The position numbers were made by a program, and so were the translations under genes. The notes beneath the pieces are model-generated. The model worked only from the letters and a program-made list of their open reading frames with translations. It was not told the DNA's origin and ran no database searches. Below are positions 9,288-58,179 of a DNA stretch of 64,000 nucleotides, piece after piece (the stretch's first letter is position 1; each line of letters begins with the position of its first letter). The DNA is from a virus (taxonomy: Duplodnaviria; Heunggongvirae; Uroviricota; Caudoviricetes). The stretch is from IMG/VR virus record IMGVR_UViG_3300045993_000138; one strand, written 5' to 3'.

Positions 9288-9836
9288 ACAGTTTCACAAT
9301 TGGTTGACTCTGCTTCAGGTATTCATCCTCGTTATTCACAGTACTATATTCGCAGAGTACGTGCAGACAAGAAGGATCCTCTTGCAAACTTCATGATCAG
9401 TAAGGGATACGTTGCCGAAGAAGACTTCTATGGAAAATCAAATTGGGTATTCTCATTTCCAATGAAGGCACCAGAAGGCGCGGTTCTCACCAAGGATGTT
9501 ACTGCAATTGAACAGCTAGAACTTTGGAAGATCTATCAGGAACATTGGTGCGAACATAAGCCATCTATTACAGTATTCGTAGGTGACGACGAATGGATGG
9601 ATGTTGGAGCATGGGTCTATAAGAACATGACAGCAATTTCAGGAGTTTCATTCCTTCCAAGAGACACTGGATCATATCGTCAGGCACCATATGAGGAAAT
9701 TGATGAGGCTAAGTATAATGAACTTCTGGCAATTCAAAATGTCAGTATTGATTGGGTGGAGTTCAAGGAAGAAACTGATATGACTGTTGGTTCTCAAAGT
9801 CTTGCTTGTGTTTCTGGCGTTTGTGACATAACTTGA
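9180..9836 (+). CDS. nrdJ: NrdJ C-terminal extein fragment, translated with IntC leader
   Basis: After ...VVHN the sequence TVSQLVDSASGIHPRYSQYY continues the class II RNR C-terminal region. Confidence 0.75.
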   Translation: MKVAKIRKTGTATLTADIEVADTHSYQLDNGWVVHNTVSQLVDSASGIHPRYSQYYIRRVRADKKDPLANFMISKGYVAEEDFYGKSNWVFSFPMKAPEGAVLTKDVTAIEQLELWKIYQEHWCEHKPSITVFVGDDEWMDVGAWVYKNMTAISGVSFLPRDTGSYRQAPYEEIDEAKYNELLAIQNVSIDWVEFKEETDMTVGSQSLACVSGVCDIT

Positions 9837-20012: not shown

Positions 20013-20090
20013 GCCCTCGTAGCCCAATTGGCAGAGGCGGCAGGTTCAAACCCTGTTCATGTGTCAGTTCAAATCTGACCGAGGGCACCA
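20013..20090 (+). tRNA. tRNA, anticodon read as CAA (Leu by anticodon) with a class-I-like short variable arm, A73 and encoded CCA
   Basis: Acceptor GCCCTCG/CGAGGGC. T-arm GTCAG-TTCAAAT-CTGAC. Anticodon stem GCAGG/CCTGT with loop TTCAAAC. A TATAAATA motif lies ~10 nt upstream. Confidence 0.65.
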
Positions 20091-20246
20091 AATTTAGAGA
20101 GAAGACTATGGATGAATTACCAGAGAAATCTACGGATAGTCAGAAAACTGATTATCAGAAATTCTTAGAGAAGAGAGAAGCTGGTGAATTTATTCCAGAT
20201 TCAGAATTGGAAATGTATCTTAAACTTATAGAAGAAGTGAAGTAAA

Positions 20247-20555
20247 ATGTCAGTTTGGTCAACAACTCCAATTTCGTTAACTCCAGATATTGAAATATTA
20301 TCATGGTCTGTGCGTCAAATTCAAAATGGTGATCATCATCTTGTTGGATATAATGGAACAGAAATGGAGGGTCGCGTCTCTTCCAAGATTCTAAGTTTTG
20401 ATAACCCGACAAAGACTGCCATTACCGCATCTGGTAGAACATACAAGCTTGTTGGTGAATCTGGTTCTGATCCAGATGCCGAATATGTTTGGTCTGTTTG
20501 GAAAAGAATTAATAAAGTTAAGACTTTCGTGGATGTTTCTGATGAATATTCTTGA
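20247..20555 (+). CDS. Hypothetical protein
   Basis: ORF located between tRNA genes. Confidence 0.35.
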   Translation: MSVWSTTPISLTPDIEILSWSVRQIQNGDHHLVGYNGTEMEGRVSSKILSFDNPTKTAITASGRTYKLVGESGSDPDAEYVWSVWKRINKVKTFVDVSDEYS

Positions 20556-20580
20556 CTTTTAAAGAAATATCCTATATAAT
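20552..20580 (+). promoter_or_regulatory. sigma70-type promoter for the tRNA-Arg gene (TTGACT-N17-TATAAT)
   Basis: Perfect hexamers. The -10 ends 11 nt before the tRNA 5' end. Confidence 0.5.
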
Positions 20581-20591
20581 ATATTGACAAT

Positions 20592-20668
20592 GGCGCTATA
20601 GCTCAACTGGACAGAGCGGAAAGCTTCTACCTTTCAGGTTGTGGGTTCGAATCCTACTAGCGTCGCCA
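20592..20668 (+). tRNA. tRNA-Arg (anticodon UCU), CCA encoded
   Basis: Acceptor GGCGCTA/TAGCGTC. D-arm GCTC-AACTGGACA-GAGC. Anticodon stem GAAAG/CTTTC with loop CTTCTAC. T-arm GTGGG-TTCGAAT-CCTAC. Confidence 0.8.
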
Positions 20669-20692
20669 AATTTAAAGTGATATGGAAATTAT

Positions 20693-21355
20693 ATGATTGA
20701 ACACAATGGAAGCATCTACCTCTCGGGTGGAATGGAACGCGCAGTAGATCTAGGATCACAGTGGCGTATCCAAGTTTCCGAAGAAATCAAACATATGGGT
20801 TTCCTACCACTAGACATTACCGCACTGGATAAGGCATATACTGCCGTTCATGGTAAGGTCATTGCTGGTGAAGATGAACTTCACGATAAGTATAACATTC
20901 GCTATCAATTCATCTATACTGATCTACGTCTGATCATCGAAAATACAGATGCGGTAATTGCGTATTACGATGAACCGTTCAAGAACGGTGCCGGATCATT
21001 CGCAGAATGTCAGTGTGCCTATGATCACGGTAAGCCACTGTTCATTGTATCTGCGTTTCCGAAAGAACAGATGCCATCATGGTTGAAGGCACTTGCCACA
21101 AAGATTTTCTTTGACTTTGAAGATCTCTATGATTATCTTGCGAAGCTTCCAAAGCAGATTTTGACCACTAAGAAGTGGAGTACAAATCATTCATTTGTAT
21201 GTTCAATGTGTGGTGATGCTACCAAGAAAAGAGAATATCATTACGTTCTCAAGAGCAATCATCCATACTGTGACAATTGTTCGTGTGTAGTTGCGCAGAC
21301 TCACGCAAAGTATGCAGATCGTTATGAGTTTATCAGTGAGATTTTGGGGTTATAA
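20693..21355 (+). CDS. Nucleoside 2-deoxyribosyltransferase-like fold protein with C-terminal Cys-rich region
   Basis: SIYLSGGME ... [29 protein letters not shown] resembles the Rcl/NDT family. C-terminal CSMCG...CDNCSC. Confidence 0.35.
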
Positions 21356-21356
21356 A

Positions 21357-21629
21357 ATGCCGTATATTGTAGATGGAAAACGACTTTATCTTGACGATGA
21401 AATCAATGCTCTTGCGCGAGCAATCGAAGCAGCTTCTTCGGAAGAAGGTCGTGCTGGTAATCTGAACTACTCAATCACCAGACTTATTGATCGTCTTTAT
21501 GATCGTCGTTATTCGGAAATCAACGATGCCGTTGGTGTTCTTGAATGTGTAAAGTTGGAATTCTATCGTAGAGTCGCTGCACCTTATGAAGACAAAAAGT
21601 GTGTCGAAAATGGCGACGTTTACCGCTAA
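21357..21629 (+). CDS. Hypothetical protein
   Basis: ATG 21357 (MPYIVDG). The longer upstream ORF overlaps the previous gene. Confidence 0.35.
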
Positions 21630-21638
21630 ATAAAATTA

Positions 21639-21716
21639 CGCCCAAGTAGCGCAATCGGCAGGAGGCAGCAGATTTAAAATCTGTACAGTACGGGTTCGAA
21701 TCCCGTCTTGGGCACC
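21639..21716 (+). tRNA. tRNA, anticodon read as UAA (Leu by anticodon) with weak D-stem and short variable arm, A73 and CCA encoded
   Basis: Acceptor GCCCAAG/CTTGGGC. T-arm ACGGG-TTCGAAT-CCCGT. Anticodon stem GCAGA/TCTGT with loop TTTAAAA. D-stem pairing is poor. Confidence 0.55.
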
Positions 21717-21731
21717 AAACAGGAATATAAT

Positions 21732-21980
21732 ATGAGTAACGTGATTAGTGTGATGTCGATGACAGATGAAGATCTACAGAGATCATTGAATCTTGCTTAT
21801 ATCAATACATTGAAGTCTCTAGAAGTAGAAAAGTTTCTTACGAAAGAACAAGTCGAAGATCTTGAAGTCAATTATTTGATCGTTATCGAACGAAAGAGTT
21901 GGCTTCCAAAGTTTTTGAGTGAACGATTTGGTCTTACTAAAGACGATCAACTGATCACCAGATTGGTACGTAGAATCTAA
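21732..21980 (+). CDS. Hypothetical protein
   Basis: Start trimmed to ATG 21732, because the track start at 21708 lies inside the tRNA. Confidence 0.35.
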   Translation: MSNVISVMSMTDEDLQRSLNLAYINTLKSLEVEKFLTKEQVEDLEVNYLIVIERKSWLPKFLSERFGLTKDDQLITRLVRRI

Positions 21981-22216
21981 TGTTCGTTTCTCCTAATCCA
22001 GATTGTGTTGATGATTGTCGTTTCAGAGAAAATGGAGGAATTTCAACATTGAAGTATTATCCTCCAATCTACGATAAGACTGGTAGAAACACCAATCCAG
22101 ATCGTAACTGGCACACATCAGAAGTGACTTGTACAGTGTGTGGCGCACAATGGATTAAGAAACAGGTGGGGTCAGATACCCCAACTTTTACAAAAATATC
22201 TGCGGAAAAGGCTTGA
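21980..22216 (+). CDS. Small Cys-containing protein
   Basis: CVDDC...CTVCG motif. Confidence 0.35.
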   Translation: MFVSPNPDCVDDCRFRENGGISTLKYYPPIYDKTGRNTNPDRNWHTSEVTCTVCGAQWIKKQVGSDTPTFTKISAEKA

Positions 22217-22241
22217 CAGAGGACAAAATTTACTATATACT
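22213..22241 (+). promoter_or_regulatory. Strong sigma70 promoter (TTGACA-N17-TATACT) driving the downstream noncoding locus
   Basis: Consensus -35 with a near-consensus -10. No ORF follows for ~460 nt. Confidence 0.5.
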
Positions 22242-22249
22242 ATGTTATA

Positions 22250-22570
22250 TTGATTGGATACTGCAAACCAACTAAAATGAAAAGGTATTGGCGTAAAACC
22301 CACATCCGACTGCCCCAACAGTAAATGGGTGTTCTCTGAGATACATGAGATAAGGTTAGTTTCCGTAACAACTGCCAATCAGATTTGAATTTTTTTAGAA
22401 TAGGTTCAGCAAACCAAAAATGCTTGGGAGAAATCCCAAACCAGCAAGCCTAGTCCTCTTAAGGGACGAGTTATAAGGTTTAGTAAAACCCGACTATTCT
22501 GTTGATTTTAGGATACTTGCAGCAATCCAACACTACTATTGTAAAGTAAAAAGGTATCCTGTTGAAATTT
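22250..22570 (+). ncRNA. Noncoding repeat-containing RNA region (candidate Y-RNA-like / structured RNA modules)
   Basis: No ORF >60 aa. Repeated units each contain ..CAGCAA(A/T)CCAA..AAAATG.. and paired arms (AGGATAC...GTATCCT; GGGAGAAATCCC). GTAAAACCC(N)CGACT occurs twice. Confidence 0.3.
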
Positions 22571-22687
22571 GGGATCAGTTCAGCAACTCTAAAATGGAAA
22601 CCAGTAGGTCGTGGGTTCGAATCCCGCTGTCATCGTAAGATGACATAGCTCAGTTGGTAGAGCAACAGGCAAATAAAAGTTGATCCC
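22571..22687 (+). ncRNA. Circularly permuted tRNA-like module enclosed by a terminal helix (YrlA-type Y RNA candidate)
   Basis: Order is terminal helix GGGATCA, then variable/T-arm (GTGGG-TTCGAAT-CCCGC), acceptor 3' strand TGTCATC-G, loop TAA, acceptor 5' strand GATGACA, TA plus D-arm GCTC-AGTTGGTA-GAGC, and terminal helix TGATCCC. The Rsr-like gene starts 19 nt downstream. Confidence 0.5.
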
Positions 22688-22705
22688 GTTTGTTATAGAA
22701 GGAAT

Positions 22706-24121
22706 ATGAAAATGAACTCATTTGTAAACGCAGTTAAGACCGTTCCAGTTCTCAAGCGTACTGAGAATGGCATGAAGGCACAGGCATCAACAATGTCTGC
22801 TGTTGTCGATCTTTTCTACAAGATCGGTGGTTCCCGTGGAATGCAGATCGTTCCACAGTTCGAAAAGGCATATCAGGATAATCCAGACCTAGCACTTCGT
22901 GTTGCTCAGTGGGCACGCGATGTCCGTGGTGGTGCTGGTGAACGTCAGCTATTCCGTGATATTCTTCTACACCTAGAAGCGCATCACACCGATGTTCTTC
23001 TTGGAACACGCCTACTCAACAACGTCGCAGAAATCGGACGTTGGGACGATCTCCTAATCTTCACCAATGGTGTTGTAAAGGCGAAGGCATTCGGCATCGT
23101 CGCGGAAGCACTCAAGATCGGTAACGGTCTTGCGGCAAAGTGGATGCCACGTAAGGGTTCGGTTGCGGCTGAACTTCGTGCGTACCTTGAACTATCACCA
23201 AAGGCATATCGTAAGCTTGTTGTTGGTCTATCCAACACAGTCGAGCAGAAGCTTTGTGCGCGTGAGTTTGAGAAGATCAACTACTCACACGTTCCATCAC
23301 TTGCGATGTCACGTTACATGAAGGCATTCTCCAAGAATGACGCAGAACGTTTCGTTGCATATCGTGAAGCCCTAAAGGCTGGCGATAAGACTGTAAAGGT
23401 AAATGCTTCGGCAGTATACCCATACGATGTTATCAAGTCTCTACGTGCTGGTGATAAGGACGTTGCTGACGCAATGTGGAAGGCACTTCCAGACTACATG
23501 GATGACTCAAATGTTCTACCAATGGTAGACGTTTCAGGTTCGATGGGATGTTCAGTTGGTGGAAACGCCAACCTACAGTGCATCGATGTTGCTCTTTCGC
23601 TCGGTCTATACTGCGCGGATAAGAACAAGGGTGCATTCAAGGACATGTTCCTAACATTCTCGGGTTCACCAGAACTTCTTGTATTGAAGGGAACACTTTC
23701 ACAGAAGATGGTTCAGATGAATTCTTCTCGTTGGGGAATGAACACCAACCTTCACGCTGCTTTCGAGCGTGTACTTGAGACTGCAATCAAGGGTAAGGCT
23801 TCTGCGGAAGACATGCCATCGATCATGCTTATCCTCTCGGACATGCAGTTCGACATGTGTACGTCTTACGATGACTCTGCAATGCAGATGATCTCTCGTA
23901 AGTATGAGAAGGCTGGATATAAGCTTCCAACCATTATCTTCTGGAATCTCAATGATCGTGCTGGAAATGCGCCAGTCTCATTCAACCAGAAGGGTGTTGG
24001 TCTTGTATCAGGATTCTCACCTTCGATCATGAAGGCTATTCTGTCCTCGGACATGGATACGCTTTCACCAGAAACCATCGTCCGCGATGCGGTGATGATT
24101 GATCGTTACAACTACGTCTAA
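22706..24121 (+). CDS. TROVE/vWA-domain protein, Ro60 (Rsr)-like
   Basis: vWA MIDAS motif VDVSGSMG at the position expected for Ro60 (LALDVSASM). TROVE-like N-terminal region. Genomic coupling with a tRNA-like ncRNA. Confidence 0.5.
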   Translation: MKMNSFVNAVKTVPVLKRTENGMKAQASTMSAVVDLFYKIGGSRGMQIVPQFEKAYQDNPDLALRVAQWARDVRGGAGERQLFRDILLHLEAHHTDVLLGTRLLNNVAEIGRWDDLLIFTNGVVKAKAFGIVAEALKIGNGLAAKWMPRKGSVAAELRAYLELSPKAYRKLVVGLSNTVEQKLCAREFEKINYSHVPSLAMSRYMKAFSKNDAERFVAYREALKAGDKTVKVNASAVYPYDVIKSLRAGDKDVADAMWKALPDYMDDSNVLPMVDVSGSMGCSVGGNANLQCIDVALSLGLYCADKNKGAFKDMFLTFSGSPELLVLKGTLSQKMVQMNSSRWGMNTNLHAAFERVLETAIKGKASAEDMPSIMLILSDMQFDMCTSYDDSAMQMISRKYEKAGYKLPTIIFWNLNDRAGNAPVSFNQKGVGLVSGFSPSIMKAILSSDMDTLSPETIVRDAVMIDRYNYV

Positions 24122-24145
24122 AAGCGTGTTGTATTGTTGAAAGTA

Positions 24146-24180
24146 AGTGCTAGTCGGTTTTAATCGGCTAGCACTTTTTC
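24146..24180 (+). terminator. Rho-independent terminator after the Rsr-like gene
   Basis: GTGCTAGTCGG-ttttaat-CGGCTAGCAC followed by TTTTT. Confidence 0.45.
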
Positions 24181-24278
24181 ATTTGGAGATTAAGATGATT
24201 AGTGGATACGTTATGCTAGCTTTGATCATCACTGCTATCGTTACTATGGTCGATTTGATTATTAAAAGTGAGTAGAAT

Positions 24279-24692
24279 ATGACACATGCAGTATTGAATC
24301 TGGACTTCATTACGGTTTGGAATCCAGAAACAAGTAGAACAGAGGTTAATATCTTCGCTGGAAATAACAGTGAACCCATTCTTGTTATTCCACTGAGAGA
24401 CATTGTGACAGCAGGAATTGCACAGGATCTTGACTATCAGGCTTCTGAGTTTTCTCAGCACAAGCCTTGGATGCACGAAACTGACATTGCAGAGAATCGT
24501 CTAGTTTCCAAGGAACTTCGCCAGCTATCGTTTGAATATGATGTTCTAGTGGACAATTACACTTCTGATTCTGGATTTGAAACAGAAGAGGAAATGCTAC
24601 AGGAACTTGTCAGAGAATCAGAGGAAATGGGATTGTATGAAGATCCCTATCTTTACTATGATCCAAGCCTGAACTATAATGGTGGACTTTAA
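24279..24692 (+). CDS. Hypothetical acidic protein
   Basis: ORF with RBS. Confidence 0.35.
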   Translation: MTHAVLNLDFITVWNPETSRTEVNIFAGNNSEPILVIPLRDIVTAGIAQDLDYQASEFSQHKPWMHETDIAENRLVSKELRQLSFEYDVLVDNYTSDSGFETEEEMLQELVRESEEMGLYEDPYLYYDPSLNYNGGL

Positions 24693-24699
24693 GAATCTA

Positions 24700-24712
24700 G
24701 TGTGATATAATG
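24700..24712 (+). promoter_or_regulatory. Extended -10 promoter element (TGTGATATAAT) for tRNA-Met
   Basis: TGn plus TATAAT, 8 nt upstream of the tRNA 5' end. Confidence 0.35.
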
Positions 24713-24719
24713 TAAATAT

Positions 24720-24796
24720 ACGGCTGTAGCTCAGTGGTAAGTAGCAAGCGCCTCATAAGCGTTAGGTCGTTGGTTCAACCCCAACCAGTCGTACCA
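24720..24796 (+). tRNA. tRNA-Met (anticodon CAU; could also be lysidine-modified Ile), CCA encoded
   Basis: Acceptor ACGGCTG/CAGTCGT. Anticodon stem AGCGC/GCGTT with loop CTCATAA. T-arm GTTGG-TTCAACC-CCAAC. Confidence 0.75.
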
Positions 24797-42935: not shown

Positions 42936-44234
42936 ATGAGCATTTATCGTATTATTGAAAGACTAGAATCCATTAGTTCTCGCAATGAGAAGATGGAAAT
43001 TCTGCGTGAAGAAGTGAATAATGAACTTCTAAAGCAGGTGTTTTTTGCTGCATTGAATCCTCATATCAATTACTTCATCAAGAAGATTCCAGAGGAACTT
43101 CCAAAGGCACCAAAGACTCTACAGAGTATGGAATGGGCACTAGCCGAATTGAATGCACTATCAGCACGCACCGTAACTGGTCATGCTGGTATTGACCATT
43201 TGGCTCGCGTGTTGTCTTCTGTGAATGAAGATGATGCCGATATCATCGAACGTGTCATCAAGAAAGACATGGATTGTGGTGTCGATGTATCCACAGTCAA
43301 CAAGATCTGGAAGAATCTGATTCCAGACTATCCTGTGATGCTGGCAACTGCATTTGATCAGAAGCTTGCAGACAAGTGGAAGTTTCCTTCTGTGGTACAG
43401 AACAAGTTCGATGGTCTACGTGTCAATGTCATTGTACGTGGAACCAAGGTAGAGTTTCGCACCCGTAATGGAAAGCTAATCAATCTGCTAGGCGAAATGG
43501 ATGCCGAATTCATCAAGCTATCAAATGATCTTCCTATGGTATACGATGGTGAACTGTTGGTTTCAGATGGTCGCAATGGTGTTCTTCCTCGTAAGGAAGG
43601 TAATGGTATTCTAAACAAGGCACAGAAAGGCACCATCAGTCAGGATGATGCCGAGCGAGTTATCGTAAAGCTTTGGGATGCAATTCCATATCCACACTTT
43701 GTTGCTGGTTTCAGTGATCTAGAATACAAGAATCGTCTGGTATTCCTATTTCCTGTCGCAAAGTTAAAGATTAATCGAATTGCCGTAGCTGAAACACACG
43801 TTGTCGAAGATATGGAAGACGTTCAGAAGCACTATCAGGCAGCACTCGCGGCTGGTGAAGAAGGTGTCATTCTAAAGGATATGGATGCACCTTGGGAGAG
43901 CAAGCGTTCGAAGCATCTAATGAAGTTCAAGGCAGAACTTGAATGTGATCTAAAGTGTGTCGAATGGATCGAAGGCACTGGTAAGTATAAAGGAATGCTA
44001 GGTGCATTGTTGCTTGAAAGTGCCGACAAGAAGGTTAATGTATCAGTAGGATCTGGATTCAATGATAAGCAACGCAAGACACTTAAAAAGAAGGATTGTG
44101 TAGGTAAGGTTGTTGCAGTCAAGTATAACGCACTGATTGAGAATATGAAGGGTGCAAAGAGTCTGTTCCTGCCGATCTTCATTGAACTGCGTGAAGATAA
44201 GTCAAAAGCTGATAGTTTGAAGGATATCAAGTAA
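42936..44234 (+). CDS. ATP-dependent DNA ligase
   Basis: Motif I KFDGLR (KxDGxR), motif III/IV region YDGELLV, motif V ILKDMDAPWE, and a C-terminal OB-fold region. Confidence 0.7.
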   Translation: MSIYRIIERLESISSRNEKMEILREEVNNELLKQVFFAALNPHINYFIKKIPEELPKAPKTLQSMEWALAELNALSARTVTGHAGIDHLARVLSSVNEDDADIIERVIKKDMDCGVDVSTVNKIWKNLIPDYPVMLATAFDQKLADKWKFPSVVQNKFDGLRVNVIVRGTKVEFRTRNGKLINLLGEMDAEFIKLSNDLPMVYDGELLVSDGRNGVLPRKEGNGILNKAQKGTISQDDAERVIVKLWDAIPYPHFVAGFSDLEYKNRLVFLFPVAKLKINRIAVAETHVVEDMEDVQKHYQAALAAGEEGVILKDMDAPWESKRSKHLMKFKAELECDLKCVEWIEGTGKYKGMLGALLLESADKKVNVSVGSGFNDKQRKTLKKKDCVGKVVAVKYNALIENMKGAKSLFLPIFIELREDKSKADSLKDIK

Positions 44235-44749
44235 TGAACAACTATGTAAGACATGCATTAGCAGAATTTCGTGCTGCTGGATGGATGGATAAAGACCACA
44301 ATTATAGTGATGAAATGCAAGAAGCAATGTGTCTTCATGTGTTAAAGCTACTCGATGCATTTCATGGTGAGGGACATTCTGGATCTTCTGCACCATATGC
44401 AGTAAATCTATTCAAGTCTCTAGCATTATTCGAACCAATTGTTCCACTGACTGGCGAAGATTGGGAATGGAATGAAGTTGGACATTATGGAGAGGGAGTT
44501 GGTGTTAGTGTATATCAGAACAATCGTTGCTCTCATGTATTCAAGCAAGAAGATTGTTTCGATGGTCAGCCATACGATAGTGAAGGTGTAGTCTTTTGGG
44601 ATTGGCATAAGGATACTGAAACTGGCGAAATGCATAAGGCACATTTTACTTGTGCAGATAGTCGCGTTCCTGTTACGTTTCCATATACACCAAAGAAAAC
44701 CTATAAGTTCAGACCATCAGAAGAATTTCCAAATGAGGTATTGTCATGA
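44234..44749 (+). CDS. Hypothetical protein
   Basis: ORF. Confidence 0.35.
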   Translation: MNNYVRHALAEFRAAGWMDKDHNYSDEMQEAMCLHVLKLLDAFHGEGHSGSSAPYAVNLFKSLALFEPIVPLTGEDWEWNEVGHYGEGVGVSVYQNNRCSHVFKQEDCFDGQPYDSEGVVFWDWHKDTETGEMHKAHFTCADSRVPVTFPYTPKKTYKFRPSEEFPNEVLS

Positions 44750-44998
44750 AAGTAAAGCAACTGATCAAGCTATTGAAAGATCTAGATCCAGATCTACAGG
44801 TTATTCTACAGAGAGATCTAGAAGGTAATGGATACTCACCACTGAGTGGGGTAGATGACGAAGATGTTCTCTATGGAGAAGATGATGATGGTGGGATGGC
44901 TATGTCAACACAAGATCTTGCCGAGGACATCGAAAATGGATATCTCAGCGAAGATCACGAATTTGTTCCTTGTGTAATTCTATTTCCAGAGCGTTAAT

Positions 44999-45484
44999 AT
45001 GTCCCTAATCAGAACAAAAGGTGATCTAATCTCACTAGCATTCGAAGGTCACTTTGATGTGATCGTTCATGGCTGCAACTGTTATTGTGCTATGGGTGCT
45101 GGTATTGCCAGAGACATTGCAGACCGTATTCCTGCCGCATATGATGCAGACAAGTTTACTGTGCGTGGTGATGCCAGCAAGATTGGTACGTACACGGCAG
45201 TTAGCGTTCCGACAAAAACAAGTCCAGTATCACTCTTTATGGTAGTGAATGCCTATACTCAGGTTATTCCATCATGGTCGAACCGGAATGTATTCGAATA
45301 CGATGGATTCGAGAGGATTCTGAATTCTCTTGCCGTAGAATACAAAGGTTCACGATTCGGATTCCCATATATCGGTATGGGACTTGCTGGTGGCGATAAG
45401 ACTCGCATCATTCCAATGATCGAAGCATTCGCGGACAAGGTAACATTGGCAGGTGGAACGGTAACTCTAGTGGAGTTTGGATAA
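44999..45484 (+). CDS. Macro domain protein (ADP-ribose binding/processing)
   Basis: DVIVHGCNCYCAMGAGIARDI matches the macro-domain Gly-rich loop. Confidence 0.55.
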   Translation: MSLIRTKGDLISLAFEGHFDVIVHGCNCYCAMGAGIARDIADRIPAAYDADKFTVRGDASKIGTYTAVSVPTKTSPVSLFMVVNAYTQVIPSWSNRNVFEYDGFERILNSLAVEYKGSRFGFPYIGMGLAGGDKTRIIPMIEAFADKVTLAGGTVTLVEFG

Positions 45485-46146
45485 TGAGAGTAGCATTCCA
45501 AAAAGAACATTATGGATATCTCCTGCGTTTCTGGAGTACCAAATCAATGCACTGGCATGAAGTTGCCTATGTAATATTCGGTATTAAAGGTCTACAATTG
45601 GAAATGCACACACCTTCAACGTGGCATGAACATGCTCGCGTCTGGTTCACAATCGGATTAGGTATAATCACAATTTCGTTTTCTCTGCCGTGGCATGGTA
45701 AGATCGTAGAAGATCATTATCAGTGTTCTGGTGCGCGATATGGATTTCAATTCTTTGAGGATCTATTCTGGATTCACTTCGGTCAAGATACAGGAAGAAG
45801 TATTGATCCTAAGAAAACTCTGACATTCTATATGCCGTGGCATTGGGATCATAAGGAACATAAAATCCTCTCAGAGTATGAAACACACCCATATACCTAT
45901 ATTTTGAAGGATGGTGAAGTCCAACTACGCAATGCCAAAATCAGAAAAGAAAGTAGATTGTGGAAGCGTTGGTGGATTCCATACAGAATGTATAGAGAAT
46001 ATATCGATGTTCAGTTCAACGAAGAAGTCGGTGAACGTGCAGGATCGTGGAAGGGTGGATGCACTGGCTGTTCATACGATATGAAGAAAGGTGAAACACC
46101 AGTAGAAACACTAGGTAGAATGGAACTAGAGAGAGTTTTCAAGTGA
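45484..46146 (+). CDS. Hypothetical protein
   Basis: ORF. Confidence 0.35.
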   Translation: MRVAFQKEHYGYLLRFWSTKSMHWHEVAYVIFGIKGLQLEMHTPSTWHEHARVWFTIGLGIITISFSLPWHGKIVEDHYQCSGARYGFQFFEDLFWIHFGQDTGRSIDPKKTLTFYMPWHWDHKEHKILSEYETHPYTYILKDGEVQLRNAKIRKESRLWKRWWIPYRMYREYIDVQFNEEVGERAGSWKGGCTGCSYDMKKGETPVETLGRMELERVFK

Positions 46147-50955: not shown

Positions 50956-51159
50956 ATGAATAATCCAATTGGTGAGATAGATCAAAAGACATTGCCATGT
51001 CCATTCTGTGGATCTAGGGCAATGATAGAGAACTATATAATCGAAGCCGCAGTGTTCTGTACAAACACACATTGTGGTGCAAAAGTAAAGGCAAAACATG
51101 CTCCAAGGCATGACACTGGTATTGAAGAAGCAATAGAGAAATGGGAACGAAGAGTATGA
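50956..51159 (+). CDS. Lar-family small zinc-ribbon protein
   Basis: LPCPFCGS...CTNTHCG. Confidence 0.4.
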   Translation: MNNPIGEIDQKTLPCPFCGSRAMIENYIIEAAVFCTNTHCGAKVKAKHAPRHDTGIEEAIEKWERRV

Positions 51160-51982
51160 ATACAATTAATTTTCTGACTGTATTTGGATATTTACTACCA
51201 ACTGTCGTAAACTTCTTGTATACTATTATTCATACGATTGAAGATTGGAAGTCAGATAGTAAAGAACCAATAATGCTCTATAGAAAAGTAACACTCGGAT
51301 ACATTCTATTGGCACTGTTTTTCACATTCACACCAATCATCAATGCATTCTATTTTCTAATTGTAGCAGCACCAGAATTCTTCAGTGAGGTGTGTGATGT
51401 GATCTCGAAGATTCTCACTACACCATTGAATAGGACAAAACATGATGCAAGCTAAAATATGTCCTACTTGTATGCAAGCCTATCCAGCAAATACGATACA
51501 CTCATGTAAGGCTGCTAATAGTATATCTCCACCACCACCATTACCAAAGCCAGCATGGGCAACAGAGATATCTGATAAGATCGATGTTCTCGGTGAAGTA
51601 ATGAAACTGCGTGAGATATTGTCACAGCAGATTACCATTAATCGTGCATTATTGAAAGAAAATTCAAAGCTAAAGAAGAAAATAGACGATCTGGAAAACC
51701 AGACATGGCACAGGATGCCTAACTAGTAATAAATACAGTTACCAAAGCCATTCAAGAGTAAGGAAACTGAATAGTAGAAATCTGTTCTACAGCACTGTAA
51801 CTGGTTCTATATTAATACTTGTATCTTGTTCGAATCCTGAATTTCCACCAATCACAGAAGAAAGAGTTAATGCTGTCAAAGGCAGCATTACCCGTACTCC
51901 TGATAAAACTATTACAGAAACGATAGCAACAGTCCCGCGTCGTCCAAGACCCCAACACAATGAACGCCCAAGTGTTGAGACT

Positions 51983-53671
51983 GTGATAATACCAAAAGAT
52001 CCTGAAAAACAGGATTCTATTGTTGATATTGAGACTAATACACCTAAAATCACATTCGACACTCGCCCAATACAAGAACTGTATGACGAGGCACGCAGTA
52101 TATTACTAAATCGTAATGGTCCGTATGACAAGGCAATAGACGATCTACGTTCTATTATACTGACCAATCCACCTGATGTTGCCAAGCTTGCACATGAATA
52201 TCTCGGCTATGCATACGAGAAGTCCAAGCTATACGAAAAGGCAATGAGAGAATATGCGGTATATCTGTCTCTATATCCAGAAGAGAATGATGACAGAATG
52301 AGAGTGCGTCAACGTCTCATGTCAATTGAGATCGTGGTGCCAAAAACTACATTGGACATATCCAGAAACAAGACACCACACATTGGTAACGATCATAGTG
52401 TGAATGCCACAGTCTCAGAATATGTGTACATGAATAACTCTGGTGCCAATACCACACAGGTCAGTTCAATCACAGGTGTCCAGTACAACATTAGTCTGTC
52501 ACATAATCAGTATAATCTATCATCCAGATTGAGACTCACCGAGATTAAAGACCTGTCTGGATTGAATGGCAACAGAACCAGCCTGTATACTGCATATGCA
52601 AAGTTCGAAGACACATTCAAGCACTATAATGTGATCGTCGGCAGACAGATGCCAGAGGCAGGTGCAATCAGCAGGTTCGATGGAGTCTCTGCACTGTGGG
52701 ATATTAGTGATGAATTAAAGGTAGTTATTGCCGGTGGCAAGCCATATGTCGGAATGTCGTCCAGTACATCACGCAGTTTCGAAGGTGCAGAAATAGACTG
52801 GAGTATCAATAGAGACTGGACAGTTGGATTATACTACAATCGTGAGACTGCCGACAAGTTATTGGAAAGATCCGCAATAGGCACAGACATTAACTATCGT
52901 GACGATAATACTAACATACTCACTCGCATTGAATATGACACGGTATATCATAGCTATAATTCCATTACGATACAGGCTAATAAATTCTTCAAGAATTACC
53001 AGATATTCGGACTGTACGAGCGCAGACGTTCACCAATGCTATATGCAGACAGTGCATTGTCGTTGGGTGGATTGAATCCAGACAGACAGGTATATAATTC
53101 TGTCAGCGAAATGATCAGCAAGTCTGGATTGAATCAGGCAGAGATCTATAACTACATCGAATCATCCACACCATTTGCAACATCATTTGTAGTGGGCGCA
53201 AACAAGAAACTGAACAAGCAATGGACAGTCGCAACAGATTTTCAAGTCACCAATCTGTCAACAGTGCCGGGTTTCAATATAGTATCACAGACACCATATG
53301 ATCCTGTGCCCATTCAAATAGGACAATCTAATTCATATGCATTGGGATTGCATTTGACTGGCGATAATATACTGAAAGAGAACAATACCACAGAATTCGT
53401 GTTGAATCACGGCATTGGCTCCATCAATTCGTACTCTATTACCGCAGCGGATAATTTCAGAAAGAATAAAAACACAACGTCATTGATAGTGCGCTATGAT
53501 TATTACGATCATGACAACATCGTTAACAAGACTGTATCCACCATGCTACGTGGCATCTATACTATCAATGATCACCATGCAATCGAGGCACAGTATTCTA
53601 GAGCATGGACACTTTCACCTGACTACAAACCAACCGACTCACTCTATATTGGATACCGATATGACTTTTAA
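51983..53671 (+). CDS. TPR-containing outer-membrane beta-barrel lipoprotein. The N-terminus probably extends upstream to ~51770-51810.
   Basis: C-terminal beta-signal ...SLYIGYRYDF. N/S/T/Y/G-rich amphipathic strands. TPR helices (YLGYAYEKSKLYEKAMREYAVYLSLYP). The in-frame upstream extension encodes SILILVSCSN (lipobox) but has no ATG. Confidence 0.55.
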   Translation: MIIPKDPEKQDSIVDIETNTPKITFDTRPIQELYDEARSILLNRNGPYDKAIDDLRSIILTNPPDVAKLAHEYLGYAYEKSKLYEKAMREYAVYLSLYPEENDDRMRVRQRLMSIEIVVPKTTLDISRNKTPHIGNDHSVNATVSEYVYMNNSGANTTQVSSITGVQYNISLSHNQYNLSSRLRLTEIKDLSGLNGNRTSLYTAYAKFEDTFKHYNVIVGRQMPEAGAISRFDGVSALWDISDELKVVIAGGKPYVGMSSSTSRSFEGAEIDWSINRDWTVGLYYNRETADKLLERSAIGTDINYRDDNTNILTRIEYDTVYHSYNSITIQANKFFKNYQIFGLYERRRSPMLYADSALSLGGLNPDRQVYNSVSEMISKSGLNQAEIYNYIESSTPFATSFVVGANKKLNKQWTVATDFQVTNLSTVPGFNIVSQTPYDPVPIQIGQSNSYALGLHLTGDNILKENNTTEFVLNHGIGSINSYSITAADNFRKNKNTTSLIVRYDYYDHDNIVNKTVSTMLRGIYTINDHHAIEAQYSRAWTLSPDYKPTDSLYIGYRYDF

Positions 53672-54194
53672 AACACTTTTATTCGTGACACTTTTGTTAC
53701 TGATTGTACCGTATTCTGTACTAAATGCTGCCGAATGTACACGATATGAGACACTGCATCCTACCTATCCATTGACAGGTGCCCATTTGAGTACAGGCAA
53801 ATGTACATCGTGTGGTCTGTGCCATATACCGGCAGGAAATGCAATCTGGATGGGCACACCAAGAACATGTATCGCATGTCACAATGGAAGCCCGTCACGC
53901 ATGACAATAGGCAGATCAGCAAAGCATCTACCTACGCTATTATTGGACTGTGGAGGATGCCATAATACCACGTTATTCAATAGTTTCACGGGTATTACAC
54001 AGGCAATGATACACAATACTGGATATCCTGCCGTGCGCTGCGATGCGTGCCATAATGGACAGTATACTACCTATAATGCGCGTGGCAAATCGAACGATCA
54101 TCCTAGAACAGTAAGGGGAGTTGTCGTCACTACTGTGGATTGCAACTATCCGGGTGGATGCCACAGACCGACAGATCCTTCATTCAACAACTGA
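53661..54194 (+). CDS. Multiheme c-type cytochrome (4 CxxCH plus 1 CX5CH), secreted
   Basis: Signal peptide MTFKTLLFVTLLLLIV...NAAE, then CGLCH, CIACH, CGGCH, CDACH, CNYPGGCH. Start overlaps the barrel gene end. Confidence 0.75.
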   Translation: MTFKTLLFVTLLLLIVPYSVLNAAECTRYETLHPTYPLTGAHLSTGKCTSCGLCHIPAGNAIWMGTPRTCIACHNGSPSRMTIGRSAKHLPTLLLDCGGCHNTTLFNSFTGITQAMIHNTGYPAVRCDACHNGQYTTYNARGKSNDHPRTVRGVVVTTVDCNYPGGCHRPTDPSFNN

Positions 54195-54249
54195 TGTTTC
54201 CTAAATAGCAGTGTCTCATTAATTTCTCCGTAAAGGAATACGCACTAAA

Positions 54250-55020
54250 ATGAACAAGTTCAAGAGCCTTTTGTTATCTACATTGATGCTCATAACAACG
54301 ACTGTTGGATTTTACCTTCCAGCCACAGTTGCTATCGCATTGATTCCTGACACTGCACAAGCCGCAGAATGTACACAGTACGAAACACTACACCCTAACT
54401 ATCCATTGACAGGTTCACACTTGTCCACTGGTAAGTGTGGAACATGTGCATCGTGCCATGCTGGTGGCATCTATGTCGGTACACCAAAGGTATGTGCAAC
54501 ATGCCACAATGGTAATCCTAGCGGACAAATTTCGGCAGCGACAATCGGTAAGTCATCCGCGCACATTCCAATCGGAACCACAACGTGCGATACCTGCCAC
54601 AATACTACATCATTTACCGCAACGTGGACAATGAATCACGCGAGTGTATCAGGACAACGATGCGATACGTGCCATACAGGAACAACCTATACTGCATATG
54701 GTGCGATGGGCAAGGACACGAATCACATCAATACCACACAGGATTGTGTGCAGTGCCATGCTTCGATGGACACAGGAATGACACACACCAATACTGACTG
54801 GTTCATTCCAATCGCTGCGATTCACGTAGGAATCACCACAGGATGCGTATCGTGCCATGATGGTACACATGCGACAGGTAAGATTAATTATGCGGCAGGA
54901 CACCCTGTAACATCAGATGCATGTGAAACATGTCACTCTATTAACACAAACTTCAAGTGTGCTTCATTAATAGATGACAAACCATTTCTTGCAATGCTAA
55001 AGAAAAAGCTATTCGCATAA
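54250..55020 (+). CDS. Multiheme c-type cytochrome (7 CxxCH), secreted; paralog of the previous gene
   Basis: Signal peptide. The shared N-terminal motif AAECT(R/Q)YETLHP.YPLTG.HLSTGKC links it to the upstream cytochrome. Seven CxxCH motifs: CASCH, CATCH, CDTCH, CDTCH, CVQCH, CVSCH, CETCH. Confidence 0.75.
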   Translation: MNKFKSLLLSTLMLITTTVGFYLPATVAIALIPDTAQAAECTQYETLHPNYPLTGSHLSTGKCGTCASCHAGGIYVGTPKVCATCHNGNPSGQISAATIGKSSAHIPIGTTTCDTCHNTTSFTATWTMNHASVSGQRCDTCHTGTTYTAYGAMGKDTNHINTTQDCVQCHASMDTGMTHTNTDWFIPIAAIHVGITTGCVSCHDGTHATGKINYAAGHPVTSDACETCHSINTNFKCASLIDDKPFLAMLKKKLFA

Positions 55021-55493
55021 GAAATGCTTGACTGAATGCCCGCGAGTGTGCTATACTAAAATATAGTTTTAACATTCGCGGGTTTTCTGCATTCTGTGTG
55101 TGGTGCGGTGCACACTATTACATAAATATGGTATGAGGGCACCAAAATAATATGGACAAGCGATGGATGCAACTCTACTCAATTCTCATAGCATTAAGTA
55201 TTCTGCTGATGATTGTCTTAATAATAAGGGACGGGAACAATACTCAATAATTCTTTGAAGATTAATAAACAATGTCTGGTGGCTGACTATACTATCACAA
55301 AAAGCATAGGAGCGACCAAATCAAATGCATAACAATACACAAGACGTATTCTCAGCATTTATATCGGACACTGGCTGGCTATTCATCTATATTAATCAGG
55401 AAGGCATTCACACATGGTATCCACTTATCAAACTCAATGACGACCAACAACAGCAATACAAAGACATAGCCGACAAGTATCAAGTATCAAACA

Positions 55494-56069
55494 ATGTCAA
55501 CGAATAAATTCATAGACGCAATGCTAATGATGTACGATGCCTATGATCCATACACAGTGGGTCATGGGCATCGTGTCGGCACGCTTTCGCATGACATTGC
55601 ACTTCGCATGGGAATGGATCAAAAGGCAGCAGACAATCTAAGACTCATGGGAATGGTACATGATGTCGGCAAGATTGCAGTGCCATTGAATATTCTGGCA
55701 AAGCCATCAAAACTCACACCAATCGAATATGAACTAATCAAGACTCATGTAAACGTAGGCTATGAAATATTCAGAAACTTCGATGATCCAAAGGATCTTG
55801 CCACAGTCATTCTACAGCATCATGAAAGACTGGACGGCAGTGGATATCCACACGGACTGAAAGAAGACGAGATTTTACTGGAATCCAAGATTCTTGCCAT
55901 TGCAGACACAATCGAAGCCATGTCATCCAACAGACCCTATCGCAAGGGACTAGGAATGGACGTTACTTTGAAAGAGATAGATAAAGGTAGAGGCACGAAG
56001 TATGATCGCAAGATTGCCAATACAGTGCTAAAAATGTTCAGAAAAGAGAACTACACGATCAGAGATTAA
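55494..56069 (+). CDS. HD-GYP domain phosphodiesterase (c-di-GMP hydrolase family)
   Basis: HGHRVG...VHDVGKIAVP...HHERLDGSGYPHGL...IADTIEAMSSNRPYRKG is a near-perfect HD-GYP signature. Confidence 0.8.
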   Translation: MSTNKFIDAMLMMYDAYDPYTVGHGHRVGTLSHDIALRMGMDQKAADNLRLMGMVHDVGKIAVPLNILAKPSKLTPIEYELIKTHVNVGYEIFRNFDDPKDLATVILQHHERLDGSGYPHGLKEDEILLESKILAIADTIEAMSSNRPYRKGLGMDVTLKEIDKGRGTKYDRKIANTVLKMFRKENYTIRD

Positions 56070-57627: not shown

Positions 57628-58179
57628 ATGATTCGCCTGTTTATACTGTATCGCATAGTGAATCGCGCTAATAATCGCGAGTACTTTGGTGTCCACGCCA
57701 CTGAGGATTTTGAGTGGGGTACCGCAACTGCTAAAGATACGTGGCGACCTAGTACCAATGCATTCTCTGAGGATTTGCGAGTCTATGGTGGGTCTGTATT
57801 CTCTCTGGAGCCTATCAGATGCTTTGCGGATGAACGTGAATCCTCTGTGACTCTCAGTAACATTTTAAAGACACAGAAGCCATACTATAACTCACTGGTC
57901 GCGCAGAGTCACAGTACACCACAGATAGGTAACAAGTATGCACTAGGATACAGGCATAGTGATGCTGTTAAGCAAAAATTATCTGAGGATCGCAGTGGGT
58001 CTGGTAATCCCATGCATGGTAGAAACCACAGTGATACTTCAAAATCACTAATGGCACAGAAGAAAGCAACAAAACGATGGGTTAACGATGGTATCAGAGA
58101 ATATCAGTTATTCAAGTCTGAACCTGTACCTATTGGGTGGTTTGCAGGTAGGTTGGCACGGAAATTGCATGAAGTGTAA
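57628..58179 (+). CDS. GIY-YIG homing endonuclease with NUMOD-like C-terminal DNA-binding repeats
   Basis: LYRIVNRANNREYFGVHA (GIY-YIG). NPMHGRNHSDTSKSLM is a NUMOD3-like repeat. Confidence 0.6.
   Translation: MIRLFILYRIVNRANNREYFGVHATEDFEWGTATAKDTWRPSTNAFSEDLRVYGGSVFSLEPIRCFADERESSVTLSNILKTQKPYYNSLVAQSHSTPQIGNKYALGYRHSDAVKQKLSEDRSGSGNPMHGRNHSDTSKSLMAQKKATKRWVNDGIREYQLFKSEPVPIGWFAGRLARKLHEV

Follow-up and report, generated by a model that had tools for sequence, protein, structure and literature searches.

A phage-borne porin and multihaem cytochrome cassette as a probable miniature of the bacterial PCC3 system

Can a phage carry the parts of an extracellular electron-transfer conduit? The question arises from a locus in which a sequence-only reading of the window (the whole 64-kb stretch of viral DNA analysed) had grouped an outer-membrane barrel, two secreted multihaem cytochromes and an HD-GYP phosphodiesterase into one module, likened it to Mtr/Pcc-type conduits or, alternatively, to a PgaA/BcsC-type secretin, and taken it for a new kind of phage cargo. 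We used sequence profile searches, structure prediction and gene neighborhood comparisons to establish what the locus encodes, how far it extends and which known system it resembles.

The three-gene cassette and its parts

Positions 51767-55020 of the window hold three co-oriented genes, coding for a barrel porin, a 5-haem cytochrome and a 7-haem cytochrome, which are as tightly spaced as had been supposed: genes 1 and 2 overlap by 11 nt and gene 3 starts 55 nt further on. Their parts are as follows.

51767..53671, + strand: outer-membrane porin gene (634 aa, probable CTG start)
51767-51829, porin residues 1-21: predicted lipoprotein signal peptide
Porin residues 22-100: low-confidence linker
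About 52070-52336, porin residues 102-190: TPR-like helices
52388-53665, porin residues 208-633: predicted 22-strand beta-barrel
Porin residues 426-467: three-helix insert separating strands 13 and 14
Porin C-terminus: beta-signal YIGYRYDF
53661..54194, + strand: pentahaem c-type cytochrome (177 aa; Cytochrome_C7, 9.8e-7)
Pentahaem signal peptide: predicted cleavage between VLNA and AECT
Pentahaem haem sites: CxxCH at residues 51, 70, 97 and 127; CX5CH at residue 161
54250..55020, + strand: heptahaem c-type cytochrome (256 aa; Cytochrome_C7, 7.7e-10; Paired_CXXCH_1, 6e-7)
Heptahaem signal peptide, long: predicted cleavage between AQA and AECT
Heptahaem haem sites: CxxCH at residues 66, 82, 113, 138, 166, 199 and 225
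Heptahaem C-terminus: conserved FKCASLIDDK motif, then a tail predicted as helix (AlphaFold2)
55034..55094, + strand: hairpin resembling an intrinsic terminator, with UUUUCUG after it, at the end of the three-gene unit

The hairpin has a minimum free energy of -27.8 kcal/mol (z = -6.0 against 200 shuffles), and in comparison with the closest relative, L010, the cassette stands out as a discrete block of 69-82% nucleotide identity between immediate flanks of 86-97%, the diverged block ending at about 55135. The gene at 55494-56069 does code for a protein of the proposed HD-GYP phosphodiesterase family, complete with the HHERLDGSGYP motif (PF13487, 3e-35); however, because it lies beyond the terminator, outside the diverged block and, among the phage loci, beside the cassette only here and in L010, we rejected it as a cassette member and treat it as a separate unit.

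The surroundings are phage-type, as had been claimed, with a Lar-like gene at 50956-51159 (phrog_599, 1.8e-9) on one side, a gene at 57628-58179 matching the NUMOD3/group I intron endonuclease model (TIGR01453) on the other, and the remaining genes of the window likewise phage-type. The assertion that the module shares the base composition of the phage holds for GC (0.41-0.45 in the cassette, 0.42 in other phage genes) and GC3 (0.38-0.40 and 0.38, respectively); the GC3 skew of the cassette genes is about 1-2 sd lower than that of other phage genes. An attempt to assign a host from the DNA ligase of the window failed, as this enzyme is only about 40% identical to those of T4-like and jumbo phages, which infect diverse hosts. 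The cassette is set among accessory and anti-defence genes (Lar-like, Tad3 and Acb3).

The reading frame of the porin gene is open from 51686, and its first ATG, GTG or TTG does not occur before 51983. In L010, a TAA stop directly precedes a conserved CTG, and the lipoprotein signals predicted downstream of it (MNSRNLFYSTVTGSILILVSC here, MNKKNLFYGSVAGSISLILVSC in L010) are conserved at the protein level; hence, judging from the two sequences, translation likely starts at CTG 51767. By analogy with Zn-ribbon-porin fusions in homologues, we also considered a frameshift fusion of the porin to an upstream 94-aa cysteine-containing ORF (51442-51726). This was rejected, since the region contains no slippery site, the ORF contains just three cysteines and matches no Zn-ribbon family, and in L010 the stop lies directly before the porin CTG. 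The lipoprotein-type N-terminus noticed earlier is thus predicted for this porin, but it is lineage-specific: its homologues begin either with an ordinary signal peptide or with a Zn-ribbon in the cytoplasm and a transmembrane anchor after it. The proposed TPR helices and C-terminal beta-signal were recovered, the former through weak but consistent matches (Pfam E 0.004-0.02; BamD model 2.6e-5) and the latter in the terminus ...YIGYRYDF, and the AlphaFold2 model, which provides the structure prediction called for at the outset, is a 22-strand beta-barrel with a TPR N-domain.

Both downstream proteins are paralogous and predicted to be secreted, with the 5 and 7 haem motifs originally counted, and their common N-terminus (AAECT.YETLHP.YPLTG.HLSTGKC) extends to the DNA level (74% identity over 99 nt). 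The fifth pentahaem site is CNYPGGCH rather than CxxCH, and takes the form CX2-6CH across homologues. Conservation of the haem-binding motifs was upheld in both: the pentahaem sites are conserved in 10 homologues, and in 58 heptahaem homologues the seven CxxCH motifs are invariant or nearly so (>= 90%), with seven additional histidines invariant. Cytochrome_C7 scores above its gathering threshold for both proteins, as does Paired_CXXCH_1 for the heptahaem protein; on these profile matches we classify both as multihaem cytochromes c of the c7/paired-CXXCH type, with predicted haem attachment at about 31 residues per haem. The closest solved relative of the heptahaem protein is the dodecahaem GSU1996 of Geobacter (3ov0, 2.6e-5), and there is a faint sequence resemblance to MtrA (6r2q_A, E 0.021); its AlphaFold2 model is of low confidence (pLDDT 63) and was left out of the fold search. 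All three frames are intact and the cassette is under purifying selection, with dN/dS values of 0.16 (porin), 0.07 (pentahaem) and 0.10 (heptahaem).

Occurrence in other phages and relation to PCC3

The porin-then-cytochrome cassette recurs in about 15 distinct phage-like contigs of up to 369 kb with differing neighbours, 13 of these loci being IMG/VR viral contigs with the porin, and it was recovered from independent assemblies (JGI, ENA, Logan and NCBI). Directly after the porin, each of the phage loci has the 7-haem cytochrome, whether or not the 5-haem one is also there. The cassette is therefore genuinely phage-borne and no assembly chimera, a possibility that the sequence-only reading had itself raised. 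In 50,697 phage records, nucleotide searches with the module and with 20 kb from the window gave no match, as did tblastn searches of the same records with the porin and heptahaem protein; nor did we find a report of a phage-borne porin-cytochrome cassette of this kind in the searchable literature, so that its supposed novelty as phage cargo appears to stand. A scan of GTDB returned only three loci, one of them a 2-kb mis-binned fragment and one in a genome labelled Methanobacteriaceae, probably also mis-binned. Cellular homologues of the porin, from Gammaproteobacteria/Pseudomonadota metagenome-assembled genomes, are annotated as 'SPOR domain-containing protein' or 'BamD, partial'.

PCC3 systems are widespread in Proteobacteria and, to our knowledge, their function has only been predicted and never tested biochemically. 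These clusters combine a porin and giant multihaem cytochromes (medians of 21 haems for the periplasmic and 34 for the extracellular ones, with repeats and a low residue-to-haem ratio) with an inner-membrane protein of ~300 aa bearing 5 transmembrane helices, an SGXXG and two WX3HX13H motifs (He et al. 2017, PMC5566968; see also Hoover et al. 2023, PMC9900912). The two PCC3 clusters of Sideroxydans lithotrophicus ES-1 were down-regulated on Fe(II) (PMC8788666).

Our PCC3 reference consists of cellular clusters rather than the published Slit_0867-0870, Slit_1446-1449 and L. cholodnii sequences. In four such loci (L008, L009, L012 and L013), homologous porins lie 3' of cytochromes with 7-45 haems; two WX3HX13H motifs occur in all four clusters, and a regular-expression search found them together with SGXXG in L008 and L009. 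A profile of the phage porins aligned with the porin of L009, a cluster with the inner-membrane-protein signature, with 99.9% probability in hhalign (E 3.7e-31, 517 columns), covering the TPR module and the whole barrel; the L009 porin had no match in a plasmid collection. Likewise, the heptahaem cytochrome recovered the PCC3-cluster cytochromes P0150 and P0158 (5.5e-21 and 4.4e-18). The close gene linkage expected of PCC3 is also present, in the 11-nt overlap and 55-nt spacing given above. The number of haems falls short of PCC3, but the residues per haem and the paired-CXXCH type are PCC3-like. Tblastn and a motif scan detected no homologue of the inner-membrane protein in the 64-kb window; related cassette-bearing phages, however, encode a loop-deleted version of 156-158 aa in which none of the four histidines varies, beside the cassette in some and 55-68 kb away in others. 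A metagenome scan for this mini version, limited to exact peptide patterns, yielded no contig of 214 kb, the genome length of the phage studied here.

A possible electron conduit and competing explanations

Our observations are the genes present, the predicted fold, the conserved haem sites, the homology to PCC3 components, the phage setting and purifying selection; on these we regard 51767-55020 as probably a scaled-down derivative of the PCC3 porin-cytochrome system of bacteria, carried by a phage. From them we infer the function of a trans-outer-membrane electron conduit, and the same qualification applies to its assembly, the direction of electron flow, the physiological benefit and the identity of the host. 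In a Gram-negative host, Sec would carry all three proteins out of the cytoplasm, the cytochrome c maturation machinery of the cell would attach the 5 and 7 haems, and BAM would insert the 22-strand barrel into the outer membrane via the YIGYRYDF signal. The heptahaem cytochrome, as the universal partner of the porin, might then sit in or at the barrel and wire the periplasm to the cell surface, with the pentahaem paralogue as a periplasmic (or surface) relay and the periplasmic TPR module as a docking site for a partner. Electrons would pass between carriers of the host, in its periplasm or inner membrane, and acceptors or donors outside the cell; in the related phages the inner-membrane carrier could be the phage-encoded mini PCC3 di-haem-b-like protein. 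The outcome would be a respiratory outlet added or replaced in oxygen-poor lake water during phage replication. Against this, the phage cytochromes have 5 and 7 haems where PCC3 has medians of 21 and 34, and twelve haems cannot bridge the whole periplasm unaided; the heptahaem model is of low confidence, the searches of the 64-kb window revealed no inner-membrane partner, and the S. lithotrophicus ES-1 clusters respond to Fe(II) by down-regulation. More tentatively, and as a possibility that we rate somewhat below even, these large freshwater phages, as a widespread group, may have a self-sufficient minimal trans-envelope conduit that they install in the host envelope, made up of the mini di-haem-b-type inner-membrane protein, the 5- and 7-haem cytochromes and the 22-strand porin. 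If so, infected cells would gain an extracellular electron outlet or inlet, amounting to virus-driven extracellular electron transfer, through a porin-cytochrome system that would rank among the smallest described from nature.

An unlikely alternative is that the barrel works as a pore for export or assembly (an usher, a nanowire-secretion porin or a PgaA/BcsC/PelB-type channel) that secretes the cytochromes or a polysaccharide; it is similarly improbable, in a version of this, that the secreted cytochromes polymerise or serve as soluble extracellular shuttles. TPR-plus-barrel is indeed the architecture of PgaA, BcsC and PelB; however, the porin domain of PgaA and BcsC has 16 strands as opposed to the 22 predicted here, and the porin has no Pfam/NCBIfam match to the BcsC, PgaA, usher or secretin families. 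Large barrels beside OmcE/OmcS nanowire genes have been proposed to act as export pores (10.1101/2025.10.22.684050), the cassette of one phage (L001) lies 3' of glycosyltransferase and GH19 genes, and the conserved FKC motif and tail of the heptahaem protein have no assigned role. On the other hand, the phage loci examined have no conserved synthase near the cassette, whose neighbours vary in every phage, no locus examined has the barrel without linked cytochromes, and the structural matches of the barrel in Foldseek are generic (TM-scores of 0.22-0.43, normalised to the query). The PgaA/BcsC alternative of the sequence-only reading was thus not sustained, and export of cytochromes would still be an extracellular electron-transfer function.

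We also doubt, to a like degree, a non-respiratory use by the phage, such as masking or replacement of a receptor in superinfection exclusion, altered envelope permeability, or a periplasmic electron sink, redox buffer or detoxifier of reactive species. Exclusion factors that are outer-membrane proteins or lipoproteins are common in phages, the accessory/anti-defence setting of the cassette would suit such a role, and the cassette diverges more than its flanks between close relatives, as surface-exposed proteins do. Yet its dN/dS values speak of conservation, not diversifying selection, and such uses leave unexplained both the strict coupling of the porin to haem-wire cytochromes across phages and bacteria and the PCC3 inner-membrane redox protein of the related phages. 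Least credible by far is host DNA mis-assembled into the phage, or a decaying recent capture without function: the GC3 skew, which for the porin and heptahaem genes is about 2 sd under the phage mean, and the non-canonical porin start would fit it, but the recurrence in independent assemblers and samples, the phage-like GC and GC3, the intact and selected frames, and the distance of the nearest cellular homologues (identities of just 30-39% to the cytochrome and about 23% to the porin) speak against it.

Giant PCC3 cytochromes with 20-85 haems are hard to express. As a natural minimisation of PCC3 (12 haems, a 634-aa porin and, in relatives, a ~157-aa inner-membrane partner), the small phage proteins would open the PCC3 hypothesis to direct tests through heterologous expression, and may offer a compact part for bioelectronic engineering. 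The cassette suggests that phages may rewire host respiration; should it work as inferred, viruses would go beyond tuning single enzymes to deliver a whole outer-membrane electron conduit, and in stratified lakes infection by phages would become linked to the cycling of iron and humic substances and to redox cycling.

Comparison with known systems

The earlier comparison with Mtr/Pcc-type conduits proved right in recognising a porin-plus-multihaem-cytochrome module, but the type is that of PCC3, which is defined bioinformatically, and neither Mtr nor Geobacter Pcc. As in PCC3, there is a homologous outer-membrane barrel of about 22 strands that comes with a TPR module and ends in ...GYRxDF (for Leptothrix cholodnii, too, the PCC3 porin is predicted to have 22 strands), accompanied by homologous c7/paired-CXXCH cytochromes with about 30 residues per haem and, in related phages, by a homologue of the inner-membrane protein that has SGXXG as well as the two WX3HX13H motifs. 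Unlike PCC3, the phage cytochromes have 5 and 7 haems in place of 10-85, the porin gene comes first, the carrier is a virus, and the inner-membrane protein is absent from the window and only about 157 aa long in the relatives, with its cytoplasmic loop deleted. Porins of the wider cellular family often have an N-terminal AMIN or SPOR domain, as against the lipobox or Zn-ribbon-TM anchor of the phage proteins.

MtrCAB, MtoAB and PioAB similarly place an outer-membrane barrel beside periplasmic and surface multihaem cytochromes. However, the MtrB barrel has 26 strands, as against the 22 predicted here, and the phage cytochromes have 5 and 7 haems rather than 10; the porin had no Pfam/NCBIfam match to MtrB/PioB at E values up to 1, and the cytochromes had none to the MtrA/DmsE decahaem family, matching only generic c7/c3/paired-CXXCH models and, below its cut-off, the MtrC/MtrF domain. 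The Geobacter Pcc (OmbB-OmaB-OmcB) and Ext clusters are closer in having small-barrel porins (about 20 strands) and c7-related haem domains, but no homology to their porins is detectable, the phage cassette lacks a lipoprotein cytochrome, and lineage and gene order differ. TonB-dependent receptors are likewise 22-strand barrels, with an N-terminal plug domain and a TonB box (TonB_dep_Rec and Plug families), and the porin is not one of them.

Among mobile elements, large freshwater phages carry pmoC, amoC and a NapC/NirT cytochrome as energy-metabolism genes (PMC7674155, 10.64898/2026.06.18.733297), the pmoC-phage paper mentioning neither cytochrome nor porin, and Borg elements carry multihaem cytochromes (PMC9605863). 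The phage studied here resembles these as a mobile element of similar habitats with host-derived energy-metabolism genes; Borgs, however, are archaeal non-viral elements, and the phage pmoC, amoC and NapC/NirT products are single subunits that join host complexes, whereas the cassette encodes a predicted multi-component, envelope-spanning module.

Layout and limits of the cassette

Three closely packed genes lie on the + strand at 51.7-55.1 kb of the window, with a gene coding for an HD-GYP domain protein beyond them:

open from 51686, start placed at CTG 51767, + strand: gene 1, the porin
53661-54194, + strand: gene 2, the pentahaem cytochrome, 177 aa, overlapping gene 1 by 11 nt
54250-55020, + strand: gene 3, the heptahaem cytochrome, 256 aa, 55 nt past gene 2
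55494-56069: HD-GYP gene (PF13487 at 3e-35)

The frame of gene 1 has no ATG, GTG or TTG upstream of 51983. In L010, a 74-kb contig and the closest relative of the window's phage, a TAA stands directly 5′ of a conserved CTG, after which a typical lipoprotein signal is kept at the protein level (MNSRNLFYSTVTGSILILVSC in the window, MNKKNLFYGSVAGSISLILVSC in L010); from these two features we infer that gene 1 begins at CTG 51767, giving a predicted protein of 634 aa. From ~51740 to ~55135 nucleotide identity to L010 is 69-82%, a sharp drop against the 86-97% of the flanks, which makes the cassette a discrete block and suggests either that it was swapped by recombination or that the envelope proteins evolve faster. 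The cassette is under purifying selection (dN/dS against L010 of 0.16, 0.07 and 0.10 for genes 1, 2 and 3).

A hairpin followed by UUUUCUG (-27.8 kcal/mol; z = -6.0 against shuffles) begins 14 nt past the stop of gene 3 and is overlapped by a promoter-like site, closing the operon-like packing of the three genes with a terminator. Because these elements follow gene 3, the HD-GYP gene looks like a unit apart from the cassette. The sequence-only reading had joined it to the porin and the two cytochromes in one module; these three stay together, whereas the HD-GYP gene lies beyond the terminator and outside the diverged block (its region is 90-95% identical to L010), and among the phage loci examined it adjoins the cassette only in L010. 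Its product is a stand-alone protein of 191 aa without a receiver domain, kept only in this closest relative; with anti-CBASS and anti-Thoeris genes in the vicinity, one may speculate that it breaks down cyclic (di)nucleotide signals. A possible 32-aa ORF with one transmembrane helix (MDKRWMQLYSILIALSILLMIVLIIRDGNNTQ) occupies 55152-55250, past the cassette terminator and ahead of the HD-GYP unit.

The predicted porin and the two multihaem cytochromes

An AlphaFold2 model of the gene 1 product, built on an alignment of 44 homologues (mean pLDDT 78), starts with a hydrophobic helix; a linker of ~80 residues, modelled with low confidence, leads to five TPR-like helices (residues 102-190), and residues 208-633 form 22 β-strands, with three helices inserted between strands 13 and 14, in agreement with the TPR helices and outer-membrane barrel first noticed in the sequence. 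The homologues fall into 44 clusters of 42-73% identity, and some carry an N-terminal Zn-ribbon, a transmembrane helix and a long linker, which points to inner-membrane anchoring. At the compared locus L006, and also at L007, the Zn-ribbon N-domain, which other homologues have as part of the porin itself, lies in a separate frame. The two L006 frames join at a nine-A run at about 9640-9660 (GATCAAAAAAAAAGATAA), where one more A would yield the fusion; the arrangement could reflect slippage during transcription or translation, or a sequencing error in the homopolymer.

The gene 2 product has four CxxCH motifs and a fifth site of variable spacing across homologues (CX2-6CH). That of gene 3 has seven CxxCH motifs, invariant or nearly so (at least 90%) in 58 homologues in which seven further histidines are invariant, a pattern compatible with bis-His ligation of seven haems. 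Both match Cytochrome_C7 above the gathering score and have ~31 residues per haem; among solved structures, the Geobacter dodecahaem cytochrome GSU1996 (3ov0, 2.6e-5) comes nearest to the gene 3 product, whose match to MtrA is faint. We retrieved 172 matches to the heptahaem cytochrome, with exactly seven CxxCH motifs in 77 of the 120 matches listed. The two cytochromes have a common mature N-terminus, AECTxYExLHPxYPLTGxHLSTGKC (74% DNA identity over 99 nt), and are paralogues; the earlier description of paralogous cytochromes with five and seven haem motifs is thereby borne out, and we regard the conservation of the haem sites as established, along with the fold prediction. At the heptahaem C-terminus (54958-55020), an invariant FKC (F235, K236, C237) precedes a tail predicted as helix, both conserved across heptahaem homologues; the motif is missing from the pentahaem paralogue, and its unpaired cysteine might act as a ligand, form an intermolecular disulfide or serve as an anchor.

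Phage context and distribution

The phage context is established, and the window carries these phage genes:

replication and accessory genes: primase, ribonucleotide reductase, T4-type DNA ligase, Holliday-junction resolvase
also among these: glucosyltransferases, Lar-like protein, homing endonucleases, Tad3, Acb3, four tRNAs
20013-24796: tRNA genes Leu-CAA, Arg-TCT, Leu-TAA and Met-CAT
22706-24121: phrog_850 'RNA-binding protein' gene (DUF2828/DUF7788), among the tRNA genes
44234-44749: Tad3, Thoeris inhibitor (PF25185 at 4.4e-30)
44999-45484: Macro-domain protein (weak match), anti-defence island
45484-46146: Acb3, CBASS inhibitor (PF25187 at 7.4e-34)

The anti-defence island (44234-46146) lies directly 3′ of the DNA ligase gene, and its Tad3-Acb3 pair also occurs in L010. 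As the sequence-only reading had it, the cassette has the base composition of the phage, with GC and GC3 equal to background and GC3 skew ~1-2 sd lower.

All cassette contexts that we opened, drawn from JGI, ENA, Logan and NCBI on contigs of up to 369 kb, are phage-like, with long runs of small ORFs of no assigned function and phage DNA-metabolism genes; the porin is present on 13 IMG/VR viral contigs. In a census with profile models run over all fetched loci, ~11 distinct phages have the order porin, pentahaem, heptahaem cytochrome, and ~4 have the porin followed by the heptahaem cytochrome only; the cassette genes always adjoin one another, and their neighbours vary from phage to phage. The 369-kb contig L015, together with L030 and L031, represents a second, more distant phage clade with the two-gene cassette; the sparse gene calls of L015, along with its genes for RF-1/PCRF and SmpB, hint that stop codons may be recoded. 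One genome of a homologous phage, GCA_902730605.1, has already been released, and the collection lists its cassette proteins without names. A full-text literature search combining phage or virus with multihaem cytochrome, porin-cytochrome or extracellular electron transfer found no such cassette, its returns being limited to Borg elements, amoC-phages with a NapC/NirT cytochrome, and unrelated work; a pmoC-phage paper on comparable lake phages does not mention a cytochrome or porin.

Relationship to bacterial porin-cytochrome clusters

Weaker cytochrome matches (30-39% identity) fall on cellular contigs. Two of these loci, L008 (a 1-Mb contig) and L009 (Pseudomonadota genome GCA_040752855.1), each encode a remote relative of the phage porin together with several multihaem cytochromes and a membrane protein of ~280-300 aa; an alphaproteobacterial genome (L012) encodes 18- and 45-haem cytochromes and then a homologous porin. 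When 1.8 billion representatives were searched with a profile, 1436 porin relatives were recovered (609 at under 1e-30), and in many of the relatives AMIN or SPOR domains stand N-terminal to the TPR-barrel. PCC3, as named by He et al. 2017 (PMC5566968), combines a porin with two cytochromes of very high haem number, one 'periplasmic' and one 'extracellular'; it also includes an inner-membrane protein of ~300 aa that bears SGXXG and a pair of WX3HX13H motifs and has been proposed as a binder of two b-haems. PCC3 is itself a bioinformatic prediction; its porin in L. cholodnii is predicted to have 22 strands, and S. lithotrophicus ES-1 showed no induction of it by Fe(II) (PMC8788666). SGXXG and both WX3HX13H, the exact PCC3 motifs, are present in the membrane proteins of L008 and L009, and those of L012 and L013, another cellular locus, have two WX3HX13H motifs; by these signatures, the cellular clusters related to the cassette are of predicted PCC3 architecture. 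The porin-cytochrome linkage is invariable in phages and cells. The Mtr/Pcc-type conduit proposed earlier survives as a porin-cytochrome module, with its family being PCC3 instead (phage porin profile aligned by hhalign to the porin of L009: 99.9% probability, E 3.7e-31, 517 columns, from the TPR through the final ...GYRVDF).

Scanning all fetched loci for these motifs recovered 156-158-aa ORFs with both WX3HX13H and SGXXG:

L025, 8541-9008, and likewise L026: mini inner-membrane protein, immediately 3′ of the porin-heptahaem gene pair
L027, 4973-5446: mini inner-membrane protein, directly before the porin
L034-L038: phage-encoded mini inner-membrane proteins

They are 42-51% identical to bacterial PCC3 inner-membrane proteins, cleanly lack a ~125-residue cytoplasmic loop and keep all four putative haem-b histidines invariant. 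Seven viral loci in an IMG/VR scan encode the protein, and in two cassette-bearing IMG/VR genomes its gene lies ~68 kb and ~55 kb from the cassette; homology and motif searches found no copy in the 64-kb window, and a metagenome scan for the protein, restricted to set patterns, yielded no contig of 214 kb, the length of the full contig.

With moderate confidence, we read the cassette as a phage-borne, radically miniaturised PCC3. Its proteins would be exported by Sec, the cytochromes matured by the host Ccm system and the porin inserted by BAM; the heptahaem cytochrome, as the porin's constant partner, would form a trans-outer-membrane wire, with the pentahaem paralogue as an optional relay, exchanging electrons with host carriers or with the mini inner-membrane protein of phages. 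The whole periplasm is too wide for twelve haems; soluble host carriers might cross it, or the envelope might be bridged another way, perhaps as in the homologues whose porin has the Zn-ribbon and transmembrane anchor. One possible pay-off is respiration kept up in oxygen-poor water, a setting suggested by sample names similar to those of stratified-lake surveys rather than by metadata.

A non-respiratory envelope or exclusion role is unlikely, as it would leave both the conserved haem wire and the phage-borne inner-membrane redox partner unexplained. Generic structural matches lend weak support to an export or usher-like pore or a polysaccharide secretin, the PgaA/BcsC-type alternative raised initially; against it stand the lack of family matches, the predicted 22 strands and the lack of a conserved synthase. 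Mis-assembly is effectively excluded, the genes adjoining one another in ~15 distinct phages with differing neighbours. Set beside bacterial PCC3, the phage porin and both cytochromes are established homologues of its components, whereas a homologue of its inner-membrane partner is encoded only in related phages.
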